Shown here: positions 32,089 to 45,600 of the stretch, piece after piece
Numbering within the stretch: position 1 is the first letter of the stretch
Layout of the letters: the number at the start of each line of letters is the position of its first letter
Origin: Escherichia coli
Lineage (GTDB): Bacteria; Pseudomonadota; Gammaproteobacteria; Enterobacterales; Enterobacteriaceae
Assembly (NCBI RefSeq): GCF_003334765.1
Contig: NZ_QOWT01000007.1
Length of the DNA stretch: 64,000 bases
Reading direction: 5' to 3' (one strand)
The notes under the pieces: generated by a model
What the model was told of the DNA's origin: nothing
Databases searched by the model: none
What the model saw: only the letters and a program-made list of their open reading frames with translations
Made by a program: the position numbers and the translations under genes

Positions 32089-33855
32089 TTATTCCGTGAC
32101 TTCCAGCGTAGTGAAGGCAAACTTCTCGCCATCAAATAGCCCCTGACTGGTTAGTTTTAGCGCGGGGATCACTGGCAGAGAAAGAAACGCCATCTGAATA
32201 AACGGCTCATCGGGTAACGGACCGCATTCACGGGCGGCGGCTTTCAAGGCGTCAATTTGTTCCGCCAGCGACTGCGCCGTGTCGGTGCTCATCAGCCCGG
32301 CAATGGGTAACGGCAGATGACTTTGTACCTGGCCGTTACGTACCACGCACAGCCCGCCGCCATCCTGAATCACCTGATTGACCGCCAGCGCCATCTCTTC
32401 GGCACTGCGACCGATCACCACAATATTATGGCTGTCATGGCTGACCGTCGCAGCCAGCGCACCTTCATTCAGTCCAAAGCCGCCAAGCAAACCACAAGCC
32501 GGAGCCAGCCGTTGCCCGTAACGCTCAAGTACGGCAATAAAGCTCACATCATCGCGATCAAAACCATTTTCGCTGTAGACGCTGGAGTGGGAGTGCGTAA
32601 TCAATTCGTTATGGATGACGTCAATGACCCGATAGCGTTTTCCGGGCGTAAATTGCAGGGCAAAGTCGCTGGCGGAAACTGGCTGGCGGGCAATGGTGTT
32701 GCCATATGGCGGAGCGGATTGTGCCAGTCTCGCCGACTCTTCCGCCTGTAAGGTTTGCGCATCAATCGGCTCGCCTTTCACCAGTACCTGCTGCACCGTG
32801 ACCTTACGCGCATCGCTCAACAGGACGATATCGGCCTGCTTGCCGGGTGCCAGTAAGCCGAGGTGATTCAGACCAAAGTGGCGCGCCGTCGACCAGCTGG
32901 CGACGCGATATGCCACATGCAGCGGCACATTGTGTTGTTCGATCAGGCGGCGAATTAAGGCATCGATGTGTCCTTCATGGGCGATCTCCCACGGGTTACG
33001 GTCATCGGTACAGAGCATGCATTGCGGGCTGTTAAATTCGTTGATCAACGGTGCCAGCGCGTTGAGATTGCGGGCAGCGGACCCTTCGCGGATCATCAAC
33101 GACATGCCGAGTTGTAATTTCCGGCGTCCTTCTTCCAGCTGATAACTTTCGTGGCAGTTTTCAATACCCGCAGTAATATAGGCGTTAAGTTCTTTACCAC
33201 CCAAACCCGGGCAGTGACCGTCCAGCGTCAGGTGGCGAAATGCATCCAGTTTATCGAGCAGCGCATTCTGCCCGCTAATTACGCCAGGGTAGTCCATCAT
33301 TTCTGCAAGGCCGGTAACCTGCGGATGGTCCCGCCAGGCGAGCATCTGTTCAAGGGTAAAACTGGCACCGTTAACATCGCAGCCTTCCAGGGCGGGTACG
33401 CAAGAGCTGACCTGTAAGTACTGGTTTTGCCTTGCCTGTTCGGCACAGCGGGCAAACCAGGCGAATCCGGCTTCGCCCATCACGTTGACGATTTCATGAG
33501 GGTCGCAAATAACGGTCGTCAGGCCGCGCGGCAGGGTAGCGGTTTCAAAAGTGACCGGCGTCATCATGCTGGATTCAATATGCAGGTGAGCATCAATAAA
33601 CCCTGGCACCGCCGTTGCGCCGCGAGCATCAATCCGCTGCAAAGCCGGAGCATCAGTGTATTCTGCGCCAACACCGGCAATGTAACGTCCTTTAATCACA
33701 ATTGGGCCGGAAATTTCTCCGCCATTGATCAGGTCGAGAATAGAGACATTATCAATAATATAATCGGCAACAGCGTCGCCACGGGAAACGGCTAACAATT
33801 CCTGGTATTCAGCCCGGCTAATGTGATGAAATTTATGGTTAATAGAATTATTCAT
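32089..33855 (-). CDS. ade: Adenine deaminase
   Basis: 588-aa amidohydrolase-family ORF recognised as Ade (YicP). Confidence 0.9.
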
Positions 33856-34029
33856 ATTTTTCTCATTTTGATTTTATCAATTTGATTATTATTTATCATA
33901 AAGAAACGTCGCGAGATTATTAAAGAATATCCATTAATGTGCAATTGAAATGTGATAATTATCACTGAACCGTTGTTGTCATTTGTTTTACAAAAGCAAG
34001 GGATTAAATCTCCTCCAATGGACAAAAAA

Positions 34030-35364
34030 ATGAATAATGACAATACCGATTACGTGAGTAATGAATCAGGGACGCTTTCGCGATTATTTAAACTACCTCA
34101 GCATGGGACCACCGTCCGCACAGAATTGATTGCGGGGATGACCACTTTTTTAACCATGGTGTACATCGTTTTTGTGAACCCGCAAATCCTCGGCGCGGCA
34201 CAAATGGACCCGAAAGTGGTGTTTGTTACCACCTGTTTGATTGCCGGTATCGGCAGTATTGCGATGGGGATATTTGCTAACTTACCCGTGGCGCTGGCTC
34301 CGGCAATGGGGCTGAACGCCTTCTTTGCCTTCGTGGTCGTGGGGGCGATGGGCATCTCCTGGCAGACCGGGATGGGCGCAATATTCTGGGGCGCAGTTGG
34401 ACTATTTTTGCTCACGCTGTTTCGTATCCGGTACTGGATGATCTCCAACATTCCCTTAAGTTTACGTATTGGTATCACCAGCGGAATTGGATTATTTATC
34501 GCCTTAATGGGATTAAAAAATACTGGCGTTATTGTCGCCAATAAAGACACGCTGGTGATGATTGGCGATTTAAGTTCTCACGGCGTGTTGTTAGGTATTT
34601 TAGGGTTTTTTATTATAACCGTGTTGTCATCACGTCATTTTCATGCCGCGGTGCTGGTTTCTATTGTGGTGACGTCTTGCTGTGGATTATTTTTCGGTGA
34701 TGTTCATTTTAGCGGCGTCTATTCCATTCCGCCTGATATTAGCGGCGTCATTGGTGAAGTAGATTTGAGCGGCGCGTTAACACTTGAACTCGCCGGTATC
34801 ATTTTCTCCTTTATGCTGATCAACCTATTTGATTCATCAGGAACATTAATTGGTGTAACTGATAAAGCGGGCTTAATAGATGGTAACGGTAAATTCCCCA
34901 ATATGAATAAGGCGCTGTATGTTGATAGCGTCAGTTCGGTGGCGGGTGCGTTTATCGGCACCTCGTCTGTTACTGCCTATATTGAAAGTACTTCTGGTGT
35001 GGCAGTCGGTGGCCGCACGGGGCTGACTGCGGTTGTGGTTGGCGTTATGTTCCTGTTGGTTATGTTCTTCTCACCGCTGGTGGCGATAGTTCCTCCTTAC
35101 GCAACCGCCGGAGCGTTAATCTTTGTTGGCGTGCTGATGACTTCGAGCCTGGCGCGCGTTAACTGGGATGATTTTACCGAATCGGTGCCTGCGTTTATTA
35201 CCACGGTGATGATGCCCTTTACTTTCTCGATCACCGAAGGGATTGCACTCGGCTTTATGTCGTACTGCATCATGAAAGTATGCACCGGGCGCTGGCGCGA
35301 TCTGAACCTGTGTGTGGTGGTGGTCGCAGCTCTGTTTGCACTGAAGATTATTCTGGTGGATTAG
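34030..35364 (+). CDS. adeQ: Adenine permease (NCS2/AzgA family), YicO/AdeQ
   Basis: 444 aa from MNNDNTDYVSNESGTLSRLFKLPQHGTTVRTE; divergent from ade. Confidence 0.85.
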   Translation: MNNDNTDYVSNESGTLSRLFKLPQHGTTVRTELIAGMTTFLTMVYIVFVNPQILGAAQMDPKVVFVTTCLIAGIGSIAMGIFANLPVALAPAMGLNAFFAFVVVGAMGISWQTGMGAIFWGAVGLFLLTLFRIRYWMISNIPLSLRIGITSGIGLFIALMGLKNTGVIVANKDTLVMIGDLSSHGVLLGILGFFIITVLSSRHFHAAVLVSIVVTSCCGLFFGDVHFSGVYSIPPDISGVIGEVDLSGALTLELAGIIFSFMLINLFDSSGTLIGVTDKAGLIDGNGKFPNMNKALYVDSVSSVAGAFIGTSSVTAYIESTSGVAVGGRTGLTAVVVGVMFLLVMFFSPLVAIVPPYATAGALIFVGVLMTSSLARVNWDDFTESVPAFITTVMMPFTFSITEGIALGFMSYCIMKVCTGRWRDLNLCVVVVAALFALKIILVD

Positions 35365-36079: not shown

Positions 36080-37270
36080 ATGAGTGAATTTATTGCCGAA
36101 AACCGCGGCGCGGATGCCATCACCCGACCGAACTGGTCAGCCGTTTTCTCGGTGGCGTTTTGTGTCGCCTGTCTGATTATCGTTGAGTTTTTGCCCGTCA
36201 GTTTGTTGACGCCAATGGCCCAGGATTTAGGCATTTCGGAAGGGGTTGCCGGGCAATCGGTGACCGTGACCGCCTTTGTGGCAATGTTTGCCAGTTTGTT
36301 TATTACCCAGACAATTCAGGCTACTGACCGCCGCTACGTTGTTATTTTGTTTGCCGTTTTGCTGACGCTCTCCTGCTTGCTGGTTTCCTTTGCTAACTCA
36401 TTCAGTTTGCTTTTAATCGGTCGTGCCTGTCTGGGGCTGGCGCTGGGCGGGTTCTGGGCGATGTCGGCGTCGCTGACCATGCGTCTGGTGCCGCCGCGTA
36501 CGGTGCCGAAGGCGCTGTCGGTGATCTTCGGCGCGGTTTCTATTGCGCTGGTGATTGCCGCGCCGTTGGGCAGTTTTTTAGGCGAGCTTATCGGTTGGCG
36601 CAATGTCTTTAATGCGGCGGCGGTGATGGGCGTGCTGTGTATTTTCTGGATTATCAAATCATTGCCTTCACTGCCAGGCGAACCCTCGCATCAGAAACAA
36701 AATACTTTCCGCTTATTACAACGTCCGGGTGTGATGGCAGGGATGATCGCCATCTTCATGTCTTTCGCCGGGCAGTTTGCTTTCTTCACGTATATTCGCC
36801 CGGTGTATATGAACCTGGCGGGATTCGGCGTGGATGGCTTAACGCTGGTGCTGTTGAGTTTTGGTATCGCCAGCTTTATTGGTACGTCGCTTTCGTCGTT
36901 CATTCTTAAACGTTCGGTAAAACTGGCCTTAGCAGGCGCGCCGTTAATACTGGCTGTGAGTGCGTTGGTACTGACGTTGTGGGGAAGCGATAAAATCGTT
37001 GCTACCGGCGTGGCGATTATCTGGGGGCTAACTTTTGCATTGGTTCCCGTCGGCTGGTCAACGTGGATCACCCGCTCGCTGGCCGATCAGGCAGAAAAAG
37101 CCGGGTCTATTCAGGTGGCGGTTATTCAGCTTGCTAATACCTGTGGCGCGGCAATCGGCGGTTATGCGCTGGATAATATTGGTCTGACTTCGCCGTTGAT
37201 GTTGTCCGGCACATTGATGTTGCTGACTGCATTGTTGGTTACTGCAAAGGTGAAAATGAAGAAATCCTGA
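36080..37270 (+). CDS. nepI: Purine ribonucleoside efflux pump NepI (MFS)
   Basis: 396 aa from [23 protein letters not shown]; the track ORF runs upstream through the REP. Confidence 0.85.
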
Positions 37271-37310
37271 TATCAGGTAAAGAAGCGTTGGTCAGTAGTT
37301 GTTGCTGTTC

Positions 37311-37604
37311 TTACATATCCGGGCATTCTACCTTACCCAACGCTTCCCAATAATTGCTCTGATTATTACGTTCCATCGCCACGATGGCCTCGCGTATATG
37401 TTGTTTATTGTTTTCATCTGACAACATTAACTTTTCCCACGCTTCATCTGATAATGACGCCTGTGGCGTGCAAATTTTACGTAAATCTTGTAATACCGTG
37501 GTTTTCTCTTTTGCGGACTGCAGTGAGCTAAAAGGCGACTCGGCGTATACGATGCCTGGCATAGCGAAAAAAGTGAAAATAAGCAGTAGTGTCGTTGGTT
37601 TCAT
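37311..37604 (-). CDS. yicS: Small secreted protein YicS
   Basis: 97 aa with signal peptide MKPTTLLLIFTFFAMPGIVYA. Confidence 0.75.
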   Translation of the reverse strand: MKPTTLLLIFTFFAMPGIVYAESPFSSLQSAKEKTTVLQDLRKICTPQASLSDEAWEKLMLSDENNKQHIREAIVAMERNNQSNYWEALGKVECPDM

Positions 37605-37825
37605 GGATTCAACCTTTTACAAATGTGTATCGAATGAAGCATAAGTGTAGTTTGCTTTCATCGCTCTCATCATGCTGTACGAAACGCGCTTGCGTGGTCA
37701 GTAAGAAGTGCCAGACTTTATATTCCACTTTTATTCCTTTTTATTCTTATCGATAGCGTTTCGTTTTTTAAACCGCAGCGACCTTACCGCTATAGTCAGG
37801 TAATCATTAATAAAAGGATAAAAAA

Positions 37826-38644
37826 ATGAAACTGACAACACATCATCTACGGACAGGGGCCGCATTATTGCTGGCCGGAATTCTGCTGGCAGGTTGCGAC
37901 CAGAGTAGCAGCGATGCAAAACACATTAAAGTTGGCGTTATAAATGGCGCAGAACAAGATGTCGCGGAAGTCGCTAAAAAGGTGGCAAAAGAGAAATATG
38001 GCCTCGATGTTGAACTGGTAGGATTTAGCGGTTCGTTGCTACCGAACGATGCGACAAATCATGGCGAACTTGATGCGAATGTCTTCCAGCATCGACCCTT
38101 TCTTGAACAAGATAATCAGGCGCATGGTTATAAACTGGTAGCGGTGGGAAATACGTTTGTCTTCCCTATGGCGGGTTATTCCAAAAAAATCAAAACCGTG
38201 GCGCAAATAAAAGAAGGCGCGACAGTGGCGATCCCCAACGACCCGACCAACCTTGGTCGCGCACTTTTACTGTTGCAAAAAGAGAAGCTAATTACTCTGA
38301 AAGAGGGAAAAGGGTTATTACCTACCGCGCTGGATATAACCGATAATCCTCGTCATTTGCAGATTATGGAACTCGAGGGGGCGCAGCTCCCGCGCGTACT
38401 GGATGATCCCAAAGTTGATGTAGCGATTATCAGCACCACTTACATTCAGCAGACCGGGCTTTCTCCGGTGCACGACAGCGTATTTATTGAAGATAAGAAT
38501 TCGCCGTATGTGAATATTTTGGTGGCACGGGAAGATAATAAGAATGCAGAAAACGTGAAGGAATTTCTGCAATCTTATCAATCACCCGAAGTCGCTAAAG
38601 CGGCAGAAACCATTTTTAACGGTGGCGCGGTGCCTGGCTGGTAA
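37826..38644 (+). CDS. nlpA: Lipoprotein 28, methionine-binding (MetQ paralog)
   Basis: 272 aa with lipobox LLAGC; sequence recognised as NlpA. Confidence 0.9.
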   Translation: MKLTTHHLRTGAALLLAGILLAGCDQSSSDAKHIKVGVINGAEQDVAEVAKKVAKEKYGLDVELVGFSGSLLPNDATNHGELDANVFQHRPFLEQDNQAHGYKLVAVGNTFVFPMAGYSKKIKTVAQIKEGATVAIPNDPTNLGRALLLLQKEKLITLKEGKGLLPTALDITDNPRHLQIMELEGAQLPRVLDDPKVDVAIISTTYIQQTGLSPVHDSVFIEDKNSPYVNILVAREDNKNAENVKEFLQSYQSPEVAKAAETIFNGGAVPGW

Positions 38645-38647
38645 TTC

Positions 38648-39571
38648 TCACTTATGCCGCGCCGGACGATTTATTTTTCTGGCGCGGCGACGGGAATCCA
38701 TTGAAATCAAAATCACCGATGACAGAATCAGCAGCGTTCCCAGCCAGTCCGGTAATGTGAACGTGATCCCCAGCAACAGCAAAGAGAGTAGCGCGCTACT
38801 TAATGGTTCTGCACAGCTCAAAATGCTGGCTTTTGGACCGCCAATTAATTGTGCTCCTTTCAGGTACAGACTAAATGTCAGGGACGTACCAATGACCACC
38901 AAATAAAAAAACGCCAGAATCAAACTGCCGTTAACGACAAAGTTTGTTCCTTGTCTGGCATAAAAAGGCAACAGAATCAGACCGCCAATCAGCATACTCC
39001 AGCCGACGACTGGTAACGTGCCATAGCGGGCAATTAGCGTTGAGGGATAGGTGGTATAGAATGCAGCAGCAAATGCCGAGGCAATGCCCCAGAACAACGC
39101 GGCAGGAGAGATCGATAATGACGTCGGATTACCGTGTGTCACCAATAAAAAAGTCCCGACCAGCGATGTCAAAATAGCGCAGAAAACCAGAATGCCCGGG
39201 CGCGATTTACGCACCAGTGAGAACCAGGCGACGATAATCGTCGGTGAGAGGAATTGCAGCACCGTTGCCGTGGCTGCGTTCGATTTTTCGATGGTTAGCA
39301 AAAAAGTGAGCTGTACAGTTAGCGCGCCAACCACGGAAAAAATCAGCAGGCTAATGGCATCTTTATGATTGTTAATAATAGAAAAGATTTTATCGCCATG
39401 AACAAATGACAGCGTCAGTAGAATCAAACCGGCGAATATCAAACGCGTCATAGTCAAAAACTGCGACGACATCTGGCTTTGCTCCATGATGTATTGCGCG
39501 CAGACCCCTGAACTTCCCCACAACACGGCGGCAATCAGAACGTTCAGCATCCCCTTTCTGGTGGAACCCAT
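38648..39571 (-). CDS. yicL: EamA-family (DMT) inner membrane transporter YicL
   Basis: 307-aa 10-TM ORF. Confidence 0.85.
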
Positions 39572-39681
39572 TTTTCCCTCTGCATACTGTTTTGTCGTTT
39601 ATGTATGCAGGCATGATAGCAAAAATGGCGAGGATGGCTCTGTTTGCGCCACGCCGATTTTTCTTAGCCCAGACTGGTGAG

Positions 39682-40866
39682 CTAAATATCTTTAATAAAC
39701 AGCAGGCAAATCATCGCAATACCCAACATCCCTATCGCCAGCCAGAACAACGCATGGTAGCTCCAGATTTCAACCATAATTCCGTCAACAGAGCCGGCGA
39801 TAATCCAGCCGACGCGTGAAGTATTTGCATATAACGTTGTCGCAGAGCCTATTTTTTCAGGCATCAAGTCCTGAAAATAAAGCATGCCGATACCACAGAG
39901 AATACCAAGGAAGATGGCATTAAGAATTTGCAATTCCAGCTCAACCGCCGGAGTCGTCGCCATGAGTACGCTGGCGTAAAAACACATTCCACTCACGATA
40001 GCAATGAGCATTAATAGTCGCTTGCCAATACGTTTCATGTAATAGCCTGCGATTAACATCATCGGAATTTCCAGACCGGCAGCGATACCAATCATTTCTC
40101 CAGCCAGTTTATCGGTTAGATGCAGTTCATCAATAATAAATAGCGGCATATTTATCATGTAGAGATTATTCGCCGCCCACATCATTGAACAGACCACAAA
40201 AAGTAGCCGCGTATCCCGCTTCCTGTGGGTGGAGGGTAAAATTTCTACGGGTTGGGTAACGACAGGAATATTTCTTTGTATTGATGGCAAAAACAACCAG
40301 ACTATCAGTCCGCAAACAACAAATGCGATGGCAGCGGTGAGATACATCACTTTAAAACTAAATCCCATTGCCAGTTCATAAGCGAGCGGTGGCCCGATAA
40401 CCCAGGCAAGCGAGATCTGAGCACGTAAAAATGTACTGAACATGACCGTCTCACGGCCTGTTCTGTCGGCGTGTTCACGGGCGAGGGCGAACATTTGCGG
40501 GTTTGCGGTGGAAGCAAAACTACTCAGAAGTACGCCCGTTGAGAGGAGAATGAAGTAGTTGCGATTCCACGCAAAAAGCGTGCAGGCCAGCACTCCAAAT
40601 AAGCAACATAGCAGAATCAGTAATTTACGGTCGCCTTGTTTATCGGAGTGCCTTGCCAGAAATTGACTGACCAGAATTCCCATAATAGCGCTACCGGTGA
40701 AGAAAAAACCTACCATTATAGGACGGGCTTTCAGTTCATCTGCGAGGAATATACTTAGGGTAGGAGTCTGAAGAGCGCCCGCAATACCCGTCAGAAAGGC
40801 GACAAGTAAAAATGCCGCGGCAGTGAGATCAAGTATTTTTGATGGAGTGGTAGCCGTTTTTTGCAT
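39682..40866 (-). CDS. setC: Sugar efflux transporter SetC (MFS)
   Basis: 394-aa MFS ORF starting MQKTATTPSKILDLTAAAFLLVAF. Confidence 0.85.
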   Translation of the reverse strand: MQKTATTPSKILDLTAAAFLLVAFLTGIAGALQTPTLSIFLADELKARPIMVGFFFTGSAIMGILVSQFLARHSDKQGDRKLLILLCCLFGVLACTLFAWNRNYFILLSTGVLLSSFASTANPQMFALAREHADRTGRETVMFSTFLRAQISLAWVIGPPLAYELAMGFSFKVMYLTAAIAFVVCGLIVWLFLPSIQRNIPVVTQPVEILPSTHRKRDTRLLFVVCSMMWAANNLYMINMPLFIIDELHLTDKLAGEMIGIAAGLEIPMMLIAGYYMKRIGKRLLMLIAIVSGMCFYASVLMATTPAVELELQILNAIFLGILCGIGMLYFQDLMPEKIGSATTLYANTSRVGWIIAGSVDGIMVEIWSYHALFWLAIGMLGIAMICLLFIKDI

Positions 40867-41502
40867 TCTTCTGAATCACCGGGCGAAAAAATATAACTGA
40901 GTTACAAATAAGTACCAGTCGAATGAGTATTGTATTAAGAATTTTTGAGTATCGCTGATACAACCAGAAAGCAATGCTAGCGCAATATTATAGGGCCAGC
41001 AATTGAGATTATTAGTAAAAGCATGTTAAGAATTAATTACCGAATTTATATATTAATTATAGTAAGGCAATGAGCTATTTTTGATAGTAAAAATAAAACA
41101 AGTTGATTTGATATATTAAATGAACAAATTAATCTTGATGGCAGTCTGATTATTGGTGAAGTTTATAGTCAGTTTTTTTCGCCAGCGGTTAAAGAAATAG
41201 AATAGTCGTATAAAAAAGGGTGTTCTGGGGCGAGTAAAACAACATCTTCACCTTAATGGCGATACAGTTGGCTGAGAGTCAGCAGGGGGGCAAATCACCT
41301 GCAAATAAACACGGCGCATACTGGCGTGAATATCGCGGATGCGTTCGAGGACAGAAGAACCGACAGGCGGATTCTTCAGCCGCTCATCGTCCATCACAAA
41401 ACCTTAGACCAGGTATTCCTGAAGCCGATTGAATATTGAGCAGTAGAAAATATCTGGATTGACAGTATTACAAGGGGTTGGAGAACGTCAGGAGAGGCAT
41501 TT

Positions 41503-41597
41503 TGGCGGAAGATCACAGGAGTCGAACCTGCCCGGGACCGCTGGCGGCCCCAACTGGATTTGAAGTCCAGCCGCCTCACCGGAGACGACGATCTTCC
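41503..41597 (-). tRNA. selC: tRNA-Sec (selenocysteine tRNA, UCA anticodon)
   Basis: Reverse complement is GGAAGATCGTCGTCTCCGGTGAGGCGGCTGGACTTCAAATCCAGTTGGGGCCGCCAGCGGTCCCGGGCAGGTTCGACTCCTGTGATCTTCCGCCA, the 95-nt E. coli selC sequence with the long variable arm. Confidence 0.97.
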
Positions 41598-41889
41598 GCG
41601 CCTCGATTGCTACATGGAGGCGGGGCGCATTATAGCTACTTCCTTGAGTTTCTACATCCCCCAGATCAGTTTTTTCCGCCTAATACACGCAGCGTATTAT
41701 CACGAAAGCATTATAGTTCATATAAAATCCATATTTTACAATGATATATGAGCGGAATTAACGCTACCACGATCACATAAAACAAGAATCATAAATTAAT
41801 AACCAGATATCGGAATATTCGCTCTCACAGGGATGGTTTACAAAATGCGTTATCGGTCTCAGCACCCCTATAGCATCAAGGAAAAGTAG

Positions 41890-43272
41890 ATGAAGAGTGA
41901 AGTGTTGTCCGTTAAAGAGAAAATTGGTTATGGCATGGGAGACGCCGCCAGCCACATTATTTTCGATAACGTAATGTTATATATGATGTTCTTTTATACC
42001 GATATTTTTGGCATTCCTGCCGGATTTGTCGGAACCATGTTTTTGGTCGCTCGTGCACTGGATGCGATTTCCGATCCTTGCATGGGGTTGTTGGCCGATC
42101 GAACGCGCTCTCGCTGGGGTAAATTTCGTCCGTGGGTACTGTTTGGCGCACTGCCATTTGGGATCGTCTGTGTACTGGCCTATAGCACGCCAGATCTCAG
42201 TATGAACGGAAAAATGATTTATGCAGCAATTACTTACACCCTACTTACCTTACTTTATACCGTCGTCAATATCCCTTACTGCGCATTGGGTGGTGTAATC
42301 ACCAATGACCCGACTCAGCGTATCTCGCTGCAATCCTGGCGTTTTGTGCTGGCGACCGCGGGAGGCATGCTTTCTACGGTTCTGATGATGCCACTGGTTA
42401 ATTTAATTGGTGGTGATAATAAACCACTCGGTTTCCAGGGTGGTATCGCGGTCCTTTCCGTGGTGGCATTCATGATGCTGGCATTCTGTTTCTTCACCAC
42501 TAAAGAACGCGTTGAAGCACCACCTACAACGACGTCTATGCGGGAAGATTTACGTGATATCTGGCAAAACGACCAGTGGCGGATTGTCGGTTTACTAACC
42601 ATTTTCAATATCCTGGCGGTGTGCGTACGCGGTGGAGCGATGATGTATTACGTCACATGGATTTTGGGTACGCCGGAAGTGTTTGTCGCTTTTCTCACCA
42701 CTTATTGCGTGGGTAACCTGATTGGTTCCGCTCTGGCAAAACCGCTGACCGACTGGAAATGTAAAGTCACTATTTTCTGGTGGACGAACGCCCTGCTGGC
42801 AGTGATTAGCCTCGCGATGTTCTTTGTTCCCATGCAGGCCAGCATCACTATGTTTGTCTTCATCTTCGTGATTGGTGTGTTGCATCAACTGGTGACACCT
42901 ATCCAGTGGGTAATGATGTCCGATACCGTCGACTACGGCGAGTGGTGCAATGGTAAACGCCTGACCGGGATCAGTTTTGCTGGCACGCTGTTTGTGCTCA
43001 AACTGGGGTTGGCCTTCGGCGGCGCTCTTATCGGCTGGATGCTGGCTTATGGCGGATATGATGCGGCAGAAAAAGCGCAGAACAGCGCCACGATTAGCAT
43101 CATTATTGCGCTATTCACGATTGTTCCGGCGATCTGTTATTTGCTGAGCGCGATTATCGCTAAACGCTACTACTCACTCACGACGCACAATCTGAAAACC
43201 GTTATGGAACAGCTGGCCCAGGGCAAACGCCGTTGCCAGCAACAATTCACCTCTCAAGAAGTGCAGAACTAA
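41890..43272 (+). CDS. yicJ: GPH-family sugar (xyloside-type) transporter YicJ
   Basis: 460-aa ORF; upstream of and co-oriented with the GH31 gene. Confidence 0.85.
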   Translation: MKSEVLSVKEKIGYGMGDAASHIIFDNVMLYMMFFYTDIFGIPAGFVGTMFLVARALDAISDPCMGLLADRTRSRWGKFRPWVLFGALPFGIVCVLAYSTPDLSMNGKMIYAAITYTLLTLLYTVVNIPYCALGGVITNDPTQRISLQSWRFVLATAGGMLSTVLMMPLVNLIGGDNKPLGFQGGIAVLSVVAFMMLAFCFFTTKERVEAPPTTTSMREDLRDIWQNDQWRIVGLLTIFNILAVCVRGGAMMYYVTWILGTPEVFVAFLTTYCVGNLIGSALAKPLTDWKCKVTIFWWTNALLAVISLAMFFVPMQASITMFVFIFVIGVLHQLVTPIQWVMMSDTVDYGEWCNGKRLTGISFAGTLFVLKLGLAFGGALIGWMLAYGGYDAAEKAQNSATISIIIALFTIVPAICYLLSAIIAKRYYSLTTHNLKTVMEQLAQGKRRCQQQFTSQEVQN

Positions 43273-43281
43273 GGAACGGCA

Positions 43282-45600
43282 ATGAAAATTAGCGATGGAA
43301 ACTGGTTGATTCAACCTGGCCTCAATTTGATTCACCCGCTTCAGGTGTTCGAGGTTGAACAGCAGGGTAATGAAATGGTGGTCTATGCTGCCCCCCGTGA
43401 TGTGCGTGAACGTACCTGGCAGCTTGATACGCCTTTATTTACGCTGCGCTTTTTCTCCCCACAGGAAGGTATTGTCGGTGTACGGATTGAGCATTTTCAG
43501 GGGGCGCTGAATAACGGTCCTCATTACCCACTCAATATTTTGCAGGACGTGAAGGTCACAATCGAAAACACAGAGCGTTATGCTGAGTTTAAAAGTGGCA
43601 ACTTAAGTGCGCGTGTCAGCAAAGGTGAGTTCTGGTCACTGGATTTTCTGCGCAACGGCGAACGTATTACCGGTAGTCAGGTGAAAAATAATGGCTACGT
43701 GCAGGACACGAATAATCAACGAAATTATATGTTTGAGCGGCTGGATCTTGGCGTTGGCGAAACAGTTTATGGTCTGGGAGAGCGCTTCACTGCCCTGGTG
43801 CGCAATGGTCAAACGGTAGAGACCTGGAACCGGGACGGCGGCACAAGTACTGAACAGGCGTATAAAAATATCCCGTTCTACATGACTAACCGTGGTTATG
43901 GGGTACTGGTCAATCATCCCCAATGCGTCTCTTTTGAAGTGGGATCGGAGAAAGTCTCCAAAGTGCAGTTCAGCGTTGAGAGTGAATATCTCGAATACTT
44001 TGTTATCGACGGTCCGACGCCGAAAGCGGTACTTGATCGTTATACCCGCTTTACTGGTCGTCCGGCGCTGCCGCCCGCGTGGTCCTTCGGTCTGTGGCTA
44101 ACCACTTCATTTACCACCAACTACGACGAGGCGACAGTAAACAGCTTTATCGATGGTATGGCGGAACGCAATCTGCCACTGCATGTTTTCCACTTTGACT
44201 GTTTCTGGATGAAAGCCTTCCAGTGGTGCGATTTTGAGTGGGACCCGCTGACTTTCCCGGACCCGGAAGGGATGATCCGCCGCCTGAAAGCGAAAGGGCT
44301 GAAAATCTGCGTCTGGATTAACCCCTATATCGGGCAAAAATCCCCCGTCTTTAAAGAGTTACAAGAGAAAGGCTATTTACTCAAACGCCCGGACGGTTCG
44401 CTGTGGCAGTGGGATAAATGGCAGCCAGGTCTGGCGATTTATGACTTTACCAATCCGGATGCCTGCACATGGTACGCCGACAAACTGAAAGGTCTGGTCG
44501 CGATGGGCGTTGATTGCTTTAAGACCGACTTTGGCGAACGTATCCCAACCGATGTTCAGTGGTTTGACGGTTCCGATCCGCAGAAAATGCATAACCATTA
44601 TGCGTACATCTACAACGAACTGGTGTGGAACGTGCTCAAGGACACCGTTGGTGAGGAAGAAGCCGTCTTGTTTGCCCGCTCGGCCTCCGTTGGTGCGCAG
44701 AAATTCCCGGTACACTGGGGTGGTGACTGTTACGCTAACTACGAATCAATGGCGGAAAGCCTGCGCGGTGGTTTGTCTATTGGCCTTTCAGGTTTTGGCT
44801 TCTGGAGCCACGATATCGGCGGCTTTGAAAATACCGCTCCGGCACACGTTTACAAACGCTGGTGCGCGTTTGGTTTGCTCTCCAGCCATAGCCGTTTACA
44901 TGGCAGCAAATCTTATCGTGTGCCGTGGGCCTACGATGATGAGTCCTGTGATGTGGTGCGCTTCTTCACGCAACTGAAATGCCGCATGATGCCGTATCTG
45001 TATCGTGAAGCTGCGCGTGCAAACACGCGGGGTACGCCGATGATGCGGGCCATGATGATGGAGTTCCCGGACGATCCGGCTTGTGATTACCTTGACCGTC
45101 AATACATGTTAGGCGACAACGTGATGGTTGCGCCGGTGTTCACTGAAGCGGGCGATGTGCAGTTCTACCTGCCGGAAGGTCGCTGGACACACCTGTGGCA
45201 CAACGATGAACTCGACGGTAGTCGCTGGCATAAACAGCAGCACAGCTTCCTGAGTCTGCCCGTTTATGTGCGTGATAACACTCTACTGGCGCTGGGCAAC
45301 AACGATCAACGTCCCGATTACGCGTGGCACGAAGGCACGGCATTCCACCTCTTTAATCAGCAAGACGGGCATGAAGCCGTCTGTGAAGTGCCCGCTGCTG
45401 ACGGTTCGGTGATCTTTACTCTAAAAGCAACACGTACTGGTAACACGATTACTGTGATTGGTGCGGGCGAGGCGAGGAACTGGACACTGTGCTTGCGCAA
45501 TGTTGTGAAAGTAAATGGTCTGCAAGGCGGTTCGCAGGCTGAAAGTGAGCAGGGGCTGGTGGTGAAGCCTCAAGGGAATGCGCTGACAATTACGTTGTAA
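43282..45600 (+). CDS. yicI: Alpha-xylosidase (GH31)
   Basis: 772-aa ORF with GH31 hallmarks (WIDMNE-like and GGDCY regions). Confidence 0.9.

Follow-up and report, generated by a model that had tools for sequence, protein, structure and literature searches.

The selC locus in this 64,000-nucleotide stretch of Escherichia coli DNA (the window) is very probably a K-12-type attachment site that is currently empty, and its selC-setC spacer a mosaic of an attachment (att) core, a rhuM relic, and the AT-rich block of setC. We document the anatomy of the locus, its homologies, its distribution in the E. coli population, and where the relic lies, namely outside present-day islands. For K-12, each of these elements (selC, yicT, the promoter island, and setC) has been annotated or published previously. 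The locus comprises the following features:

41503 to 41597, minus strand: selC, the gene for tRNA-Sec (anticodon TCA/UCA), intact by ARAGORN, Rfam, and identity to K-12
41488 to 41526, minus strand: att core for selC-targeting islands, present in a single copy within the window
41425 to 41487, no strand assigned: short flank separating the att core from the rhuM relic, with no recognisable feature and no Rfam match
41263 to 41424, minus strand: relic of a RhuM-family (PF13310) gene, the K-12 pseudogene yicT (162 bp; BLASTP, tblastn, annotation)
40880 to 41210, no strand assigned: AT-rich promoter island upstream of setC (GC trough; PMC3661553 Table 1; PMC5493296 SELEX)
39682 to 40866, minus strand: setC, encoding a sugar-efflux MFS transporter of 394 aa (open reading frame [ORF] and annotation)

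The selC-setC spacer

selC and setC are separated by exactly 636 bp (40867-41502), the distance given in the initial annotation, and this spacer has 0 mismatches in 636 positions to that of K-12 MG1655; data obtained with K-12 therefore carry over directly. MG1655 also has an identical tRNA gene and the same gene order, yicI-yicJ-selC-yicT-setC-yicL-nlpA, and differs only outside 40867-41597, by ~1.6% on the yicJ/yicI side from position 41728. The two halves of the spacer are unlike: its setC side is AT-rich, while the 252 bp beside the tRNA gene (41251-41502) have a GC content of 48.8%. The initial description of a very AT-rich spacer is thus accurate for 40900-41250, where GC content is 30.2% and reaches its window minimum, but not for the half next to selC. 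A repeat search of 39000-43000 returned only short repeats at chance level. One inverted pair (40869-40898 and 41167-41196; 30 nt, 70% complementary) brackets the AT-rich block and was judged insignificant.

An intact tRNA gene and a single att core

selC is identical to its K-12 counterpart, is recognized by ARAGORN, and matches Rfam family RF01852 over its full length (model positions 1 to 91 of 91; score, 83.8 bits; gathering score, 47), in agreement with its earlier annotation as intact. Even at a permissive E-value, this tRNA-Sec was the sole Rfam match in 40700-41900. The att core of ~39 nt consists of the last 24 nt of the tRNA gene (41503-41526) and ~15 nt downstream (41488-41502). The 24-nt part is duplicated where the spacer meets island DNA in strains Rosetta2-DE3, whose duplicate has a 3-nt gap, and GF153. 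The 15-nt extension is common to the selC-proximal junctions of LF82 and O157 and to the distal copy in LF82, and the left ends of islands also share 41488-41502.

No second copy of the last 16 to 25 nt of selC was found on either strand of the 64-kb window with up to three mismatches, and two selC-island integrases used as tblastn queries gave only noise (E ≥ 1), none of it within the spacer; these searches bear out the earlier report of neither a direct repeat of the tRNA 3' end nor an integrase. The spacer (40867-41502) also lacks any ORF longer than 61 aa. The site is therefore unoccupied, as first proposed, in the operational sense: the tRNA gene is intact, the att core is single, no integrase adjoins it, and the flank is contiguous and is the same flank found beyond the island in Rosetta2-DE3 and GF153. 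Judged by its sequence, the att core would be a free target of selC-specific integrases, functional-looking because it is identical to the sequence used in occupied strains; as an intact, single copy, it should be available to P4-type island integrases. Next to the tRNA gene, 41446-41502 matches Escherichia sp. E1V33 at 94% identity, and the selC site of E1V33 has neither setC nor a rhuM match.

The rhuM relic

The spacer had been described as free of cargo genes, but it contains a fragment of a RhuM-family gene, annotated in K-12 as the pseudogene yicT (b4653), whose annotated extent equals 41263-41394 in the window. RefSeq treats it as a rhuM (RhuM family protein) pseudogene that is interrupted by a stop and lacks its N and C termini, and carries this annotation here in thousands of E. 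coli genomes. Translation of 41424-41263 on the minus strand gives LQEYLV*GFVMDDERLKNPPVGSSVLERIRDIHASMRRVYLQVICPPADSQPTV. The BLASTP alignment of the relic to the intact LF82 RhuM (345 aa) covers residues 121-185 of that protein (E = 5e-23; 42 of 65 residues identical). The relic has two in-frame deletions relative to it, of 8 and 3 codons, and an in-frame TAA stop at 41404-41406. Eight intact RhuMs used as tblastn queries, namely that of LF82 and seven others from several genera and two MAG contigs, all matched the relic (E = 2e-18 to 2e-20); they detected no further RhuM fragment in other frames or in the rest of the spacer. At the DNA level, the relic is only ~75% identical to LF82 rhuM. 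It lies on the same strand as the tRNA gene, as does intact rhuM.

The relic retains ~54 codons, <20% of the 345-aa protein and approximately one-quarter of its domain; it is similar to the PF13310 family but has no complete PF13310 domain in an open reading frame. Because only residues ~121-185 of 345 remain, and these with a TAA stop and two deletions, it is a pseudogene and not a functional RhuM member: a nonfunctional, inert internal fragment of a rhuM gene. We found no relevant report in the literature on yicT. With this fragment in the spacer, the locus is an empty attB beside an old remnant rather than a pristine site. A cargo-gene fragment, atypical composition, and variable presence all speak for an island remnant; an integrase remnant and a distal att repeat or island-end motif are lacking in the window, unlike at LF82 and two further rhuM loci (L053 and L105), where the distal repeat or motif is present. 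The initial annotation had held that an integrase fragment or att duplication in the spacer would indicate a degraded island rather than an empty site; neither is there, and the cargo-gene fragment points in the same direction, more weakly.

Intact rhuM genes beside selC in other genomes

The intact RhuM of LF82 is a full PF13310 Virulence_RhuM protein (E = 6e-118) and matches the PADLOC phage-defence candidate PDC-S05 (E = 3e-173); no NCBIfam model matched either this protein or its 165-aa neighbour. RhuM-family genes have been found enriched near invertible type I R-M loci, with an odds ratio of 14.4 (PMC9881135). At the LF82 locus, selC is followed by 52 bp, intact rhuM, ~110 bp, a degenerate copy of the selC 3' end, an AT-rich gene for the 165-aa hypothetical protein, and yicL; setC is missing. 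This arrangement, with intact rhuM by selC, is found in 844 of 5,426 complete E. coli genomes.

For other species, we collected loci with an exact match to the selC 3' 26-mer, of which at least 120 were listed, and searched them by tblastn; no Salmonella locus was among the matches listed. Within this set, Morganella psychrotolerans, Pseudescherichia vulneris, an Enterobacter sp., an Erwinia MAG, and one further MAG contig have a RhuM homologue immediately 3' of selC, 150 to 520 bp away on the same strand; partial RhuM matches occupy the same position at Hafnia, Erwinia, Xenorhabdus, Photorhabdus, and Atlantibacter loci. In Escherichia albertii, selC is followed by an integrase fragment and then RhuM. 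At ~35 to 45 of the 120 loci listed, the slot 3' of selC holds a P4-type integrase.

In LF82, P. vulneris, and the Erwinia MAG, the rhuM islet terminates in a degenerate tRNA-end copy; ahead of that copy stands the A[A/G/C]ATCAA...TTAA... motif with which large islands also end. Because of this shared end motif, the islets resemble collapsed members of the large-island family. Single-gene rhuM islets (LF82, L002 5250-6480; P. vulneris, L053; the Erwinia MAG, L105; and E. albertii, L016) end ~110 bp past the rhuM stop and have no integrase, except that the E. albertii locus (L016) retains an integrase fragment. Such att-bounded, single-gene islets in several genera are the sole mildly new observation of this study; although absent from the window, they could interest researchers working on the mobility of defence genes. 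A further idea is that the relic is what is left of a recurrent mini-island made up of rhuM alone, with no integrase of its own, and delimited by the 3' end of selC and a degenerate distal copy bearing the end motif of the large P4-integrase islands. selC-specific integrases could then mobilise such islets in trans, and K-12-type strains would have lost a small defence cassette. We consider this idea unlikely, if conceivable.

Salmonella SPI-3 is also located at selC; rhuM, of the same PF13310 family as the relic, is its selC-end gene and is prone to deletion in Salmonella too. In both SPI-3, as described for Salmonella, and LF82, rhuM lies directly 3' of selC in the orientation of the tRNA gene. 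None of the other SPI-3 genes (sugR, misL, marT, and mgtCB) is found here: the selC-yicL interval holds only setC and the rhuM fragment, so the window lacks the complete set of genes that SPI-3 has at this place.

The AT-rich block upstream of setC

The AT-rich block, 14 to 344 bp upstream of the setC ATG, coincides with the GC trough. Windowed GC content falls to 25% over 200 bp at 41001-41200, the lowest value among all 200-bp and 350-bp windows of the 64 kb and ~4.9 standard deviations (sd) below the window mean (0.518; sd, 0.055). The second-lowest value in the window, 25.5% at 33831-34030, belongs to the divergent intergenic region of K-12 adeQ/adeD, an ordinary shared promoter region. 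In MG1655 coordinates (U00096.3), the block corresponds to 3836609-3836939, given an offset from U00096.2 of 1977 bp, which we cross-checked against the istR/tisB SELEX peak.

The alternative first offered for this AT-rich part, that it is bound by H-NS, agrees with published K-12 data. The identical K-12 sequence is promoter island 3834632_331, listed as selC(+)/setC(+) by Panyukov & Ozoline 2013 (PMC3661553 Table 1), where its H column reads "A," that is, H-NS binding in all of the ChIP studies compiled, and its C column records one neighbouring gene as predicted foreign. Genomic SELEX placed in vitro peaks of the RpoS and RpoH holoenzymes within the selC>setC spacer (PMC5493296); they map to ~40986 and ~40888. 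From these reports, the block appears to be a documented, H-NS-bound regulatory region of setC.

Promoter islands are defined by a very high density of predicted start points, together with H-NS and RNA polymerase occupancy in vivo and little productive transcription. With its published entry, our block shares coordinates, AT-richness, a high density of −10-like hexamers, a putatively acquired neighbouring gene, and the reported H-NS binding. It contains 16 −10-like hexamers, compared with 2.15 ± 2.35 in 331-bp stretches of the rest of the window, but composition-matched shuffles contain 14.7 ± 4.2. Since composition fully accounts for the surplus, the label "promoter island" may simply mean AT-rich. 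A simple scan for the σ70 consensus found one promoter-like site in 1.2 kb where 2.7 were expected, hence no surplus of full promoters, and a terminator scan found one weak terminator-like site, no more than in shuffled sequence. H-NS-motif-like 10-mers number 9 in the block against 2.5 ± 1.8.

The block matched no Rfam family, and distant BLASTN searches of the AT-rich part against plasmid and phage collections revealed no genuine mobile-element relatives: full-length matches there were E. coli chromosomal DNA, and the sole other match was 47 nt from Fusobacterium. On the other side of selC, the divergent selC-yicJ spacer (41598-41889) is also AT-rich (35 to 38% GC), and yicJ<HNS>selC has been listed as an H-NS-associated spacer with an RpoD constitutive promoter (PMC3946193). 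Together with the promoter island, this entry gives selC reported H-NS-associated regions on both sides.

setC and the variable interval

setC has a GC content of 46.2%, compared with 51.8% for the window. Of 5,426 E. coli genomes, 3,722 carry it at ≥80% coverage, and it is absent from the selC loci of LF82, Escherichia sp. E1V33, and all 120 other-species loci listed; it is thus a variable gene and was probably acquired. Toward yicL, homology to both LF82 and E1V33 ends at ~39600-39636, and toward selC it ends at 41446-41488; therefore the interval holding setC, the AT-rich block, and the relic is a variable segment. It is replaced in the 844 LF82-type genomes and absent in other genera, among the loci listed.

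IS1 recurs in this interval, lying within the spacer in some strains and splitting setC in several; in E. coli Z142-6 (L003 6110-8317), the spacer contains an integrase fragment with an IS1 copy on either side. Compared with K-12 MG1655, 37000-41727 has a single mismatch (at 40104) and 41728-44727 has 48 (~1.6%). Such an abrupt change in divergence at ~41728, in the selC/yicJ promoter region, suggests a homologous-recombination breakpoint beside the hotspot.

Occupied and empty selC sites in E. coli

We searched 5,426 complete E. coli genomes with a 301-bp probe spanning the junction (41350-41650). The contiguous K-12-type empty junction is present in 2,490 (~46%). At occupied sites, the probe matches the spacer plus only 21 to 30 nt of the tRNA 3' end, and the tRNA gene itself is found at a second place. 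Rosetta2-DE3 (BL21-derived) and GF153 both have the order setC, AT-rich block, relic, tRNA-end copy, CP4-like island, and selC; the copied last ~24 nt of the tRNA gene reads TGGCGGAAGATCACAGGAGTCGAA on the plus strand. Cargo of the CP4-like islands includes a CbtA toxin-antitoxin system and Ag43 or another autotransporter. In Rosetta2-DE3, an integrase lies at the selC-side edge of the examined stretch.

In BL21-type strains and GF153, the identical relic-bearing spacer flanks the island; their islands and the integrase-bearing element at selC in O157:H7 have used the same att core. The relic lies outside the islands of Rosetta2-DE3 and GF153 and therefore predates them. The window differs from occupied sites in having no tyrosine integrase beside selC, as is found in Rosetta2-DE3 and O157:H7, and in having neither their tens of kb of cargo nor their 21- to 30-nt duplicate of the tRNA 3' end. 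For typing of selC occupancy (LEE and other islands), the useful points are the att core at 41488-41526, the yicT relic outside it, and the ~46% of genomes with an empty site. More generally, "empty" tRNA hotspots can retain fossils of past occupants. The locus is ordinary and known, and the finding matters little beyond correct annotation.

Origin of the spacer

In our preferred reading of the locus, an empty attB with a mosaic spacer, the relic is what survives of an older rhuM module that formerly adjoined the 3' end of selC, where LF82-type E. coli, E. albertii, and several other Enterobacterales still carry rhuM. Deletions would then have taken both ends of rhuM, along with any integrase or distal att copy; this order of events is our reconstruction. 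Because no att remnant or integrase fragment lies beside the relic, we infer its island origin from genome comparison. The 331-bp AT-rich block would be the regulatory region of setC, with RNA polymerase bound to it and an H-NS coat that silences it (the binding is taken from the literature), as would be typical of horizontally acquired AT-rich DNA; most likely, it keeps setC transcription low. Counting against our reading, the ~60 bp between the tRNA gene and the relic are common to E1V33, which has no rhuM match.

It is possible, although we lean against it, that the selC-yicL interval (~39600-41445: setC, AT-rich block, and relic) is instead one old, degraded island gained in a single acquisition, such that the site is fossilised rather than empty. 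The homology to LF82 and E1V33 that ends at 39600-39636 and 41446-41488, the occurrence of setC in 0 of the 120 other-species selC loci listed, the low GC content (46% in setC and 30% in the block, compared with 52% in the window), the neighbouring gene predicted to be foreign (PMC3661553), and a relic of island-type cargo are all consistent with such an origin. Yet an integrase fragment, an att duplicate, and an island-end motif are all absent, the 57 bp beside the tRNA gene are common to a lineage without setC or a rhuM match, and the relic has 49% GC where the adjoining block has 30%, a contrast that suggests separate origins. The opposite proposal, that the selC site has always been a pristine attB free of foreign DNA and that the spacer is native intergenic sequence with an AT-rich promoter region, could draw on the missing integrase and att duplication and on the ordinary adeQ/adeD intergenic region (~33831), which is nearly as AT-rich (25.5% GC). 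We rejected it as highly improbable: it is contradicted by the relic, which matches eight RhuMs with E-values (~1e-20) that exclude an artefactual similarity and which has the position and orientation of intact rhuM elsewhere, and the interval is variable in E. coli and absent in other genera, among the loci listed.

Two further proposals concern single parts of the spacer, and we give very little credence to either. The AT-rich block, which lies near an island hotspot and has an atypical composition, might be the physical scar of an imprecise island excision. Site-specific excision, however, restores attB precisely; moreover, the block is 277 to 607 bp from the att core, on the far side of the relic and abutting setC, resembles neither phage or plasmid DNA nor island ends, and persists unchanged outside the island in occupied strains. 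Its position and its presence outside those islands led us to reject the scar, so that the initial interpretation stands as to an unoccupied site and an H-NS-bound spacer but falls as to a scar and a lack of cargo. Similarly, the yicT fragment might have been kept for a product, either a regulatory RNA or the protein of a 49-aa ORF (41248-41397), given that this GTG-initiated, 49-codon frame covers most of the relic past its stop and that the fragment is 95 to 100% identical across thousands of genomes. That seems very improbable, however, because the fragment is no more conserved than neighbouring noncoding DNA in the same matches, matches no Rfam family, and amounts to <20% of a 345-aa protein and to about a quarter of the domain; no evidence of its expression was found.

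Anomalies in database records

Several records matched in our searches appear to be mislabelled. In the Campylobacter phage records MG065686.1 (A18a) and MG065691.1 (A11a), part of the sequence matches the E. coli selC-setC spacer at 100% identity, suggesting contamination or a chimeric assembly. In PLSDB, three "plasmids" of 1 to 4.9 Mb (CP061233.1, NZ_OL790696.1, and NZ_CP141089.1) appear to be E. coli chromosomal DNA. Five short contigs from MAGs or uncultured isolates (L011, L033, L051, L098, and L122) are labelled Bacillota, Sphingobacterium, Clostridiales, Wohlfahrtiimonas, and Collinsella. Each includes an exact copy of the enterobacterial selC 3' 26-mer and encodes a RhuM or P4-type integrase that is 70 to 98% identical to E. 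coli proteins; these are probably mis-binned contigs of enterobacterial islands.
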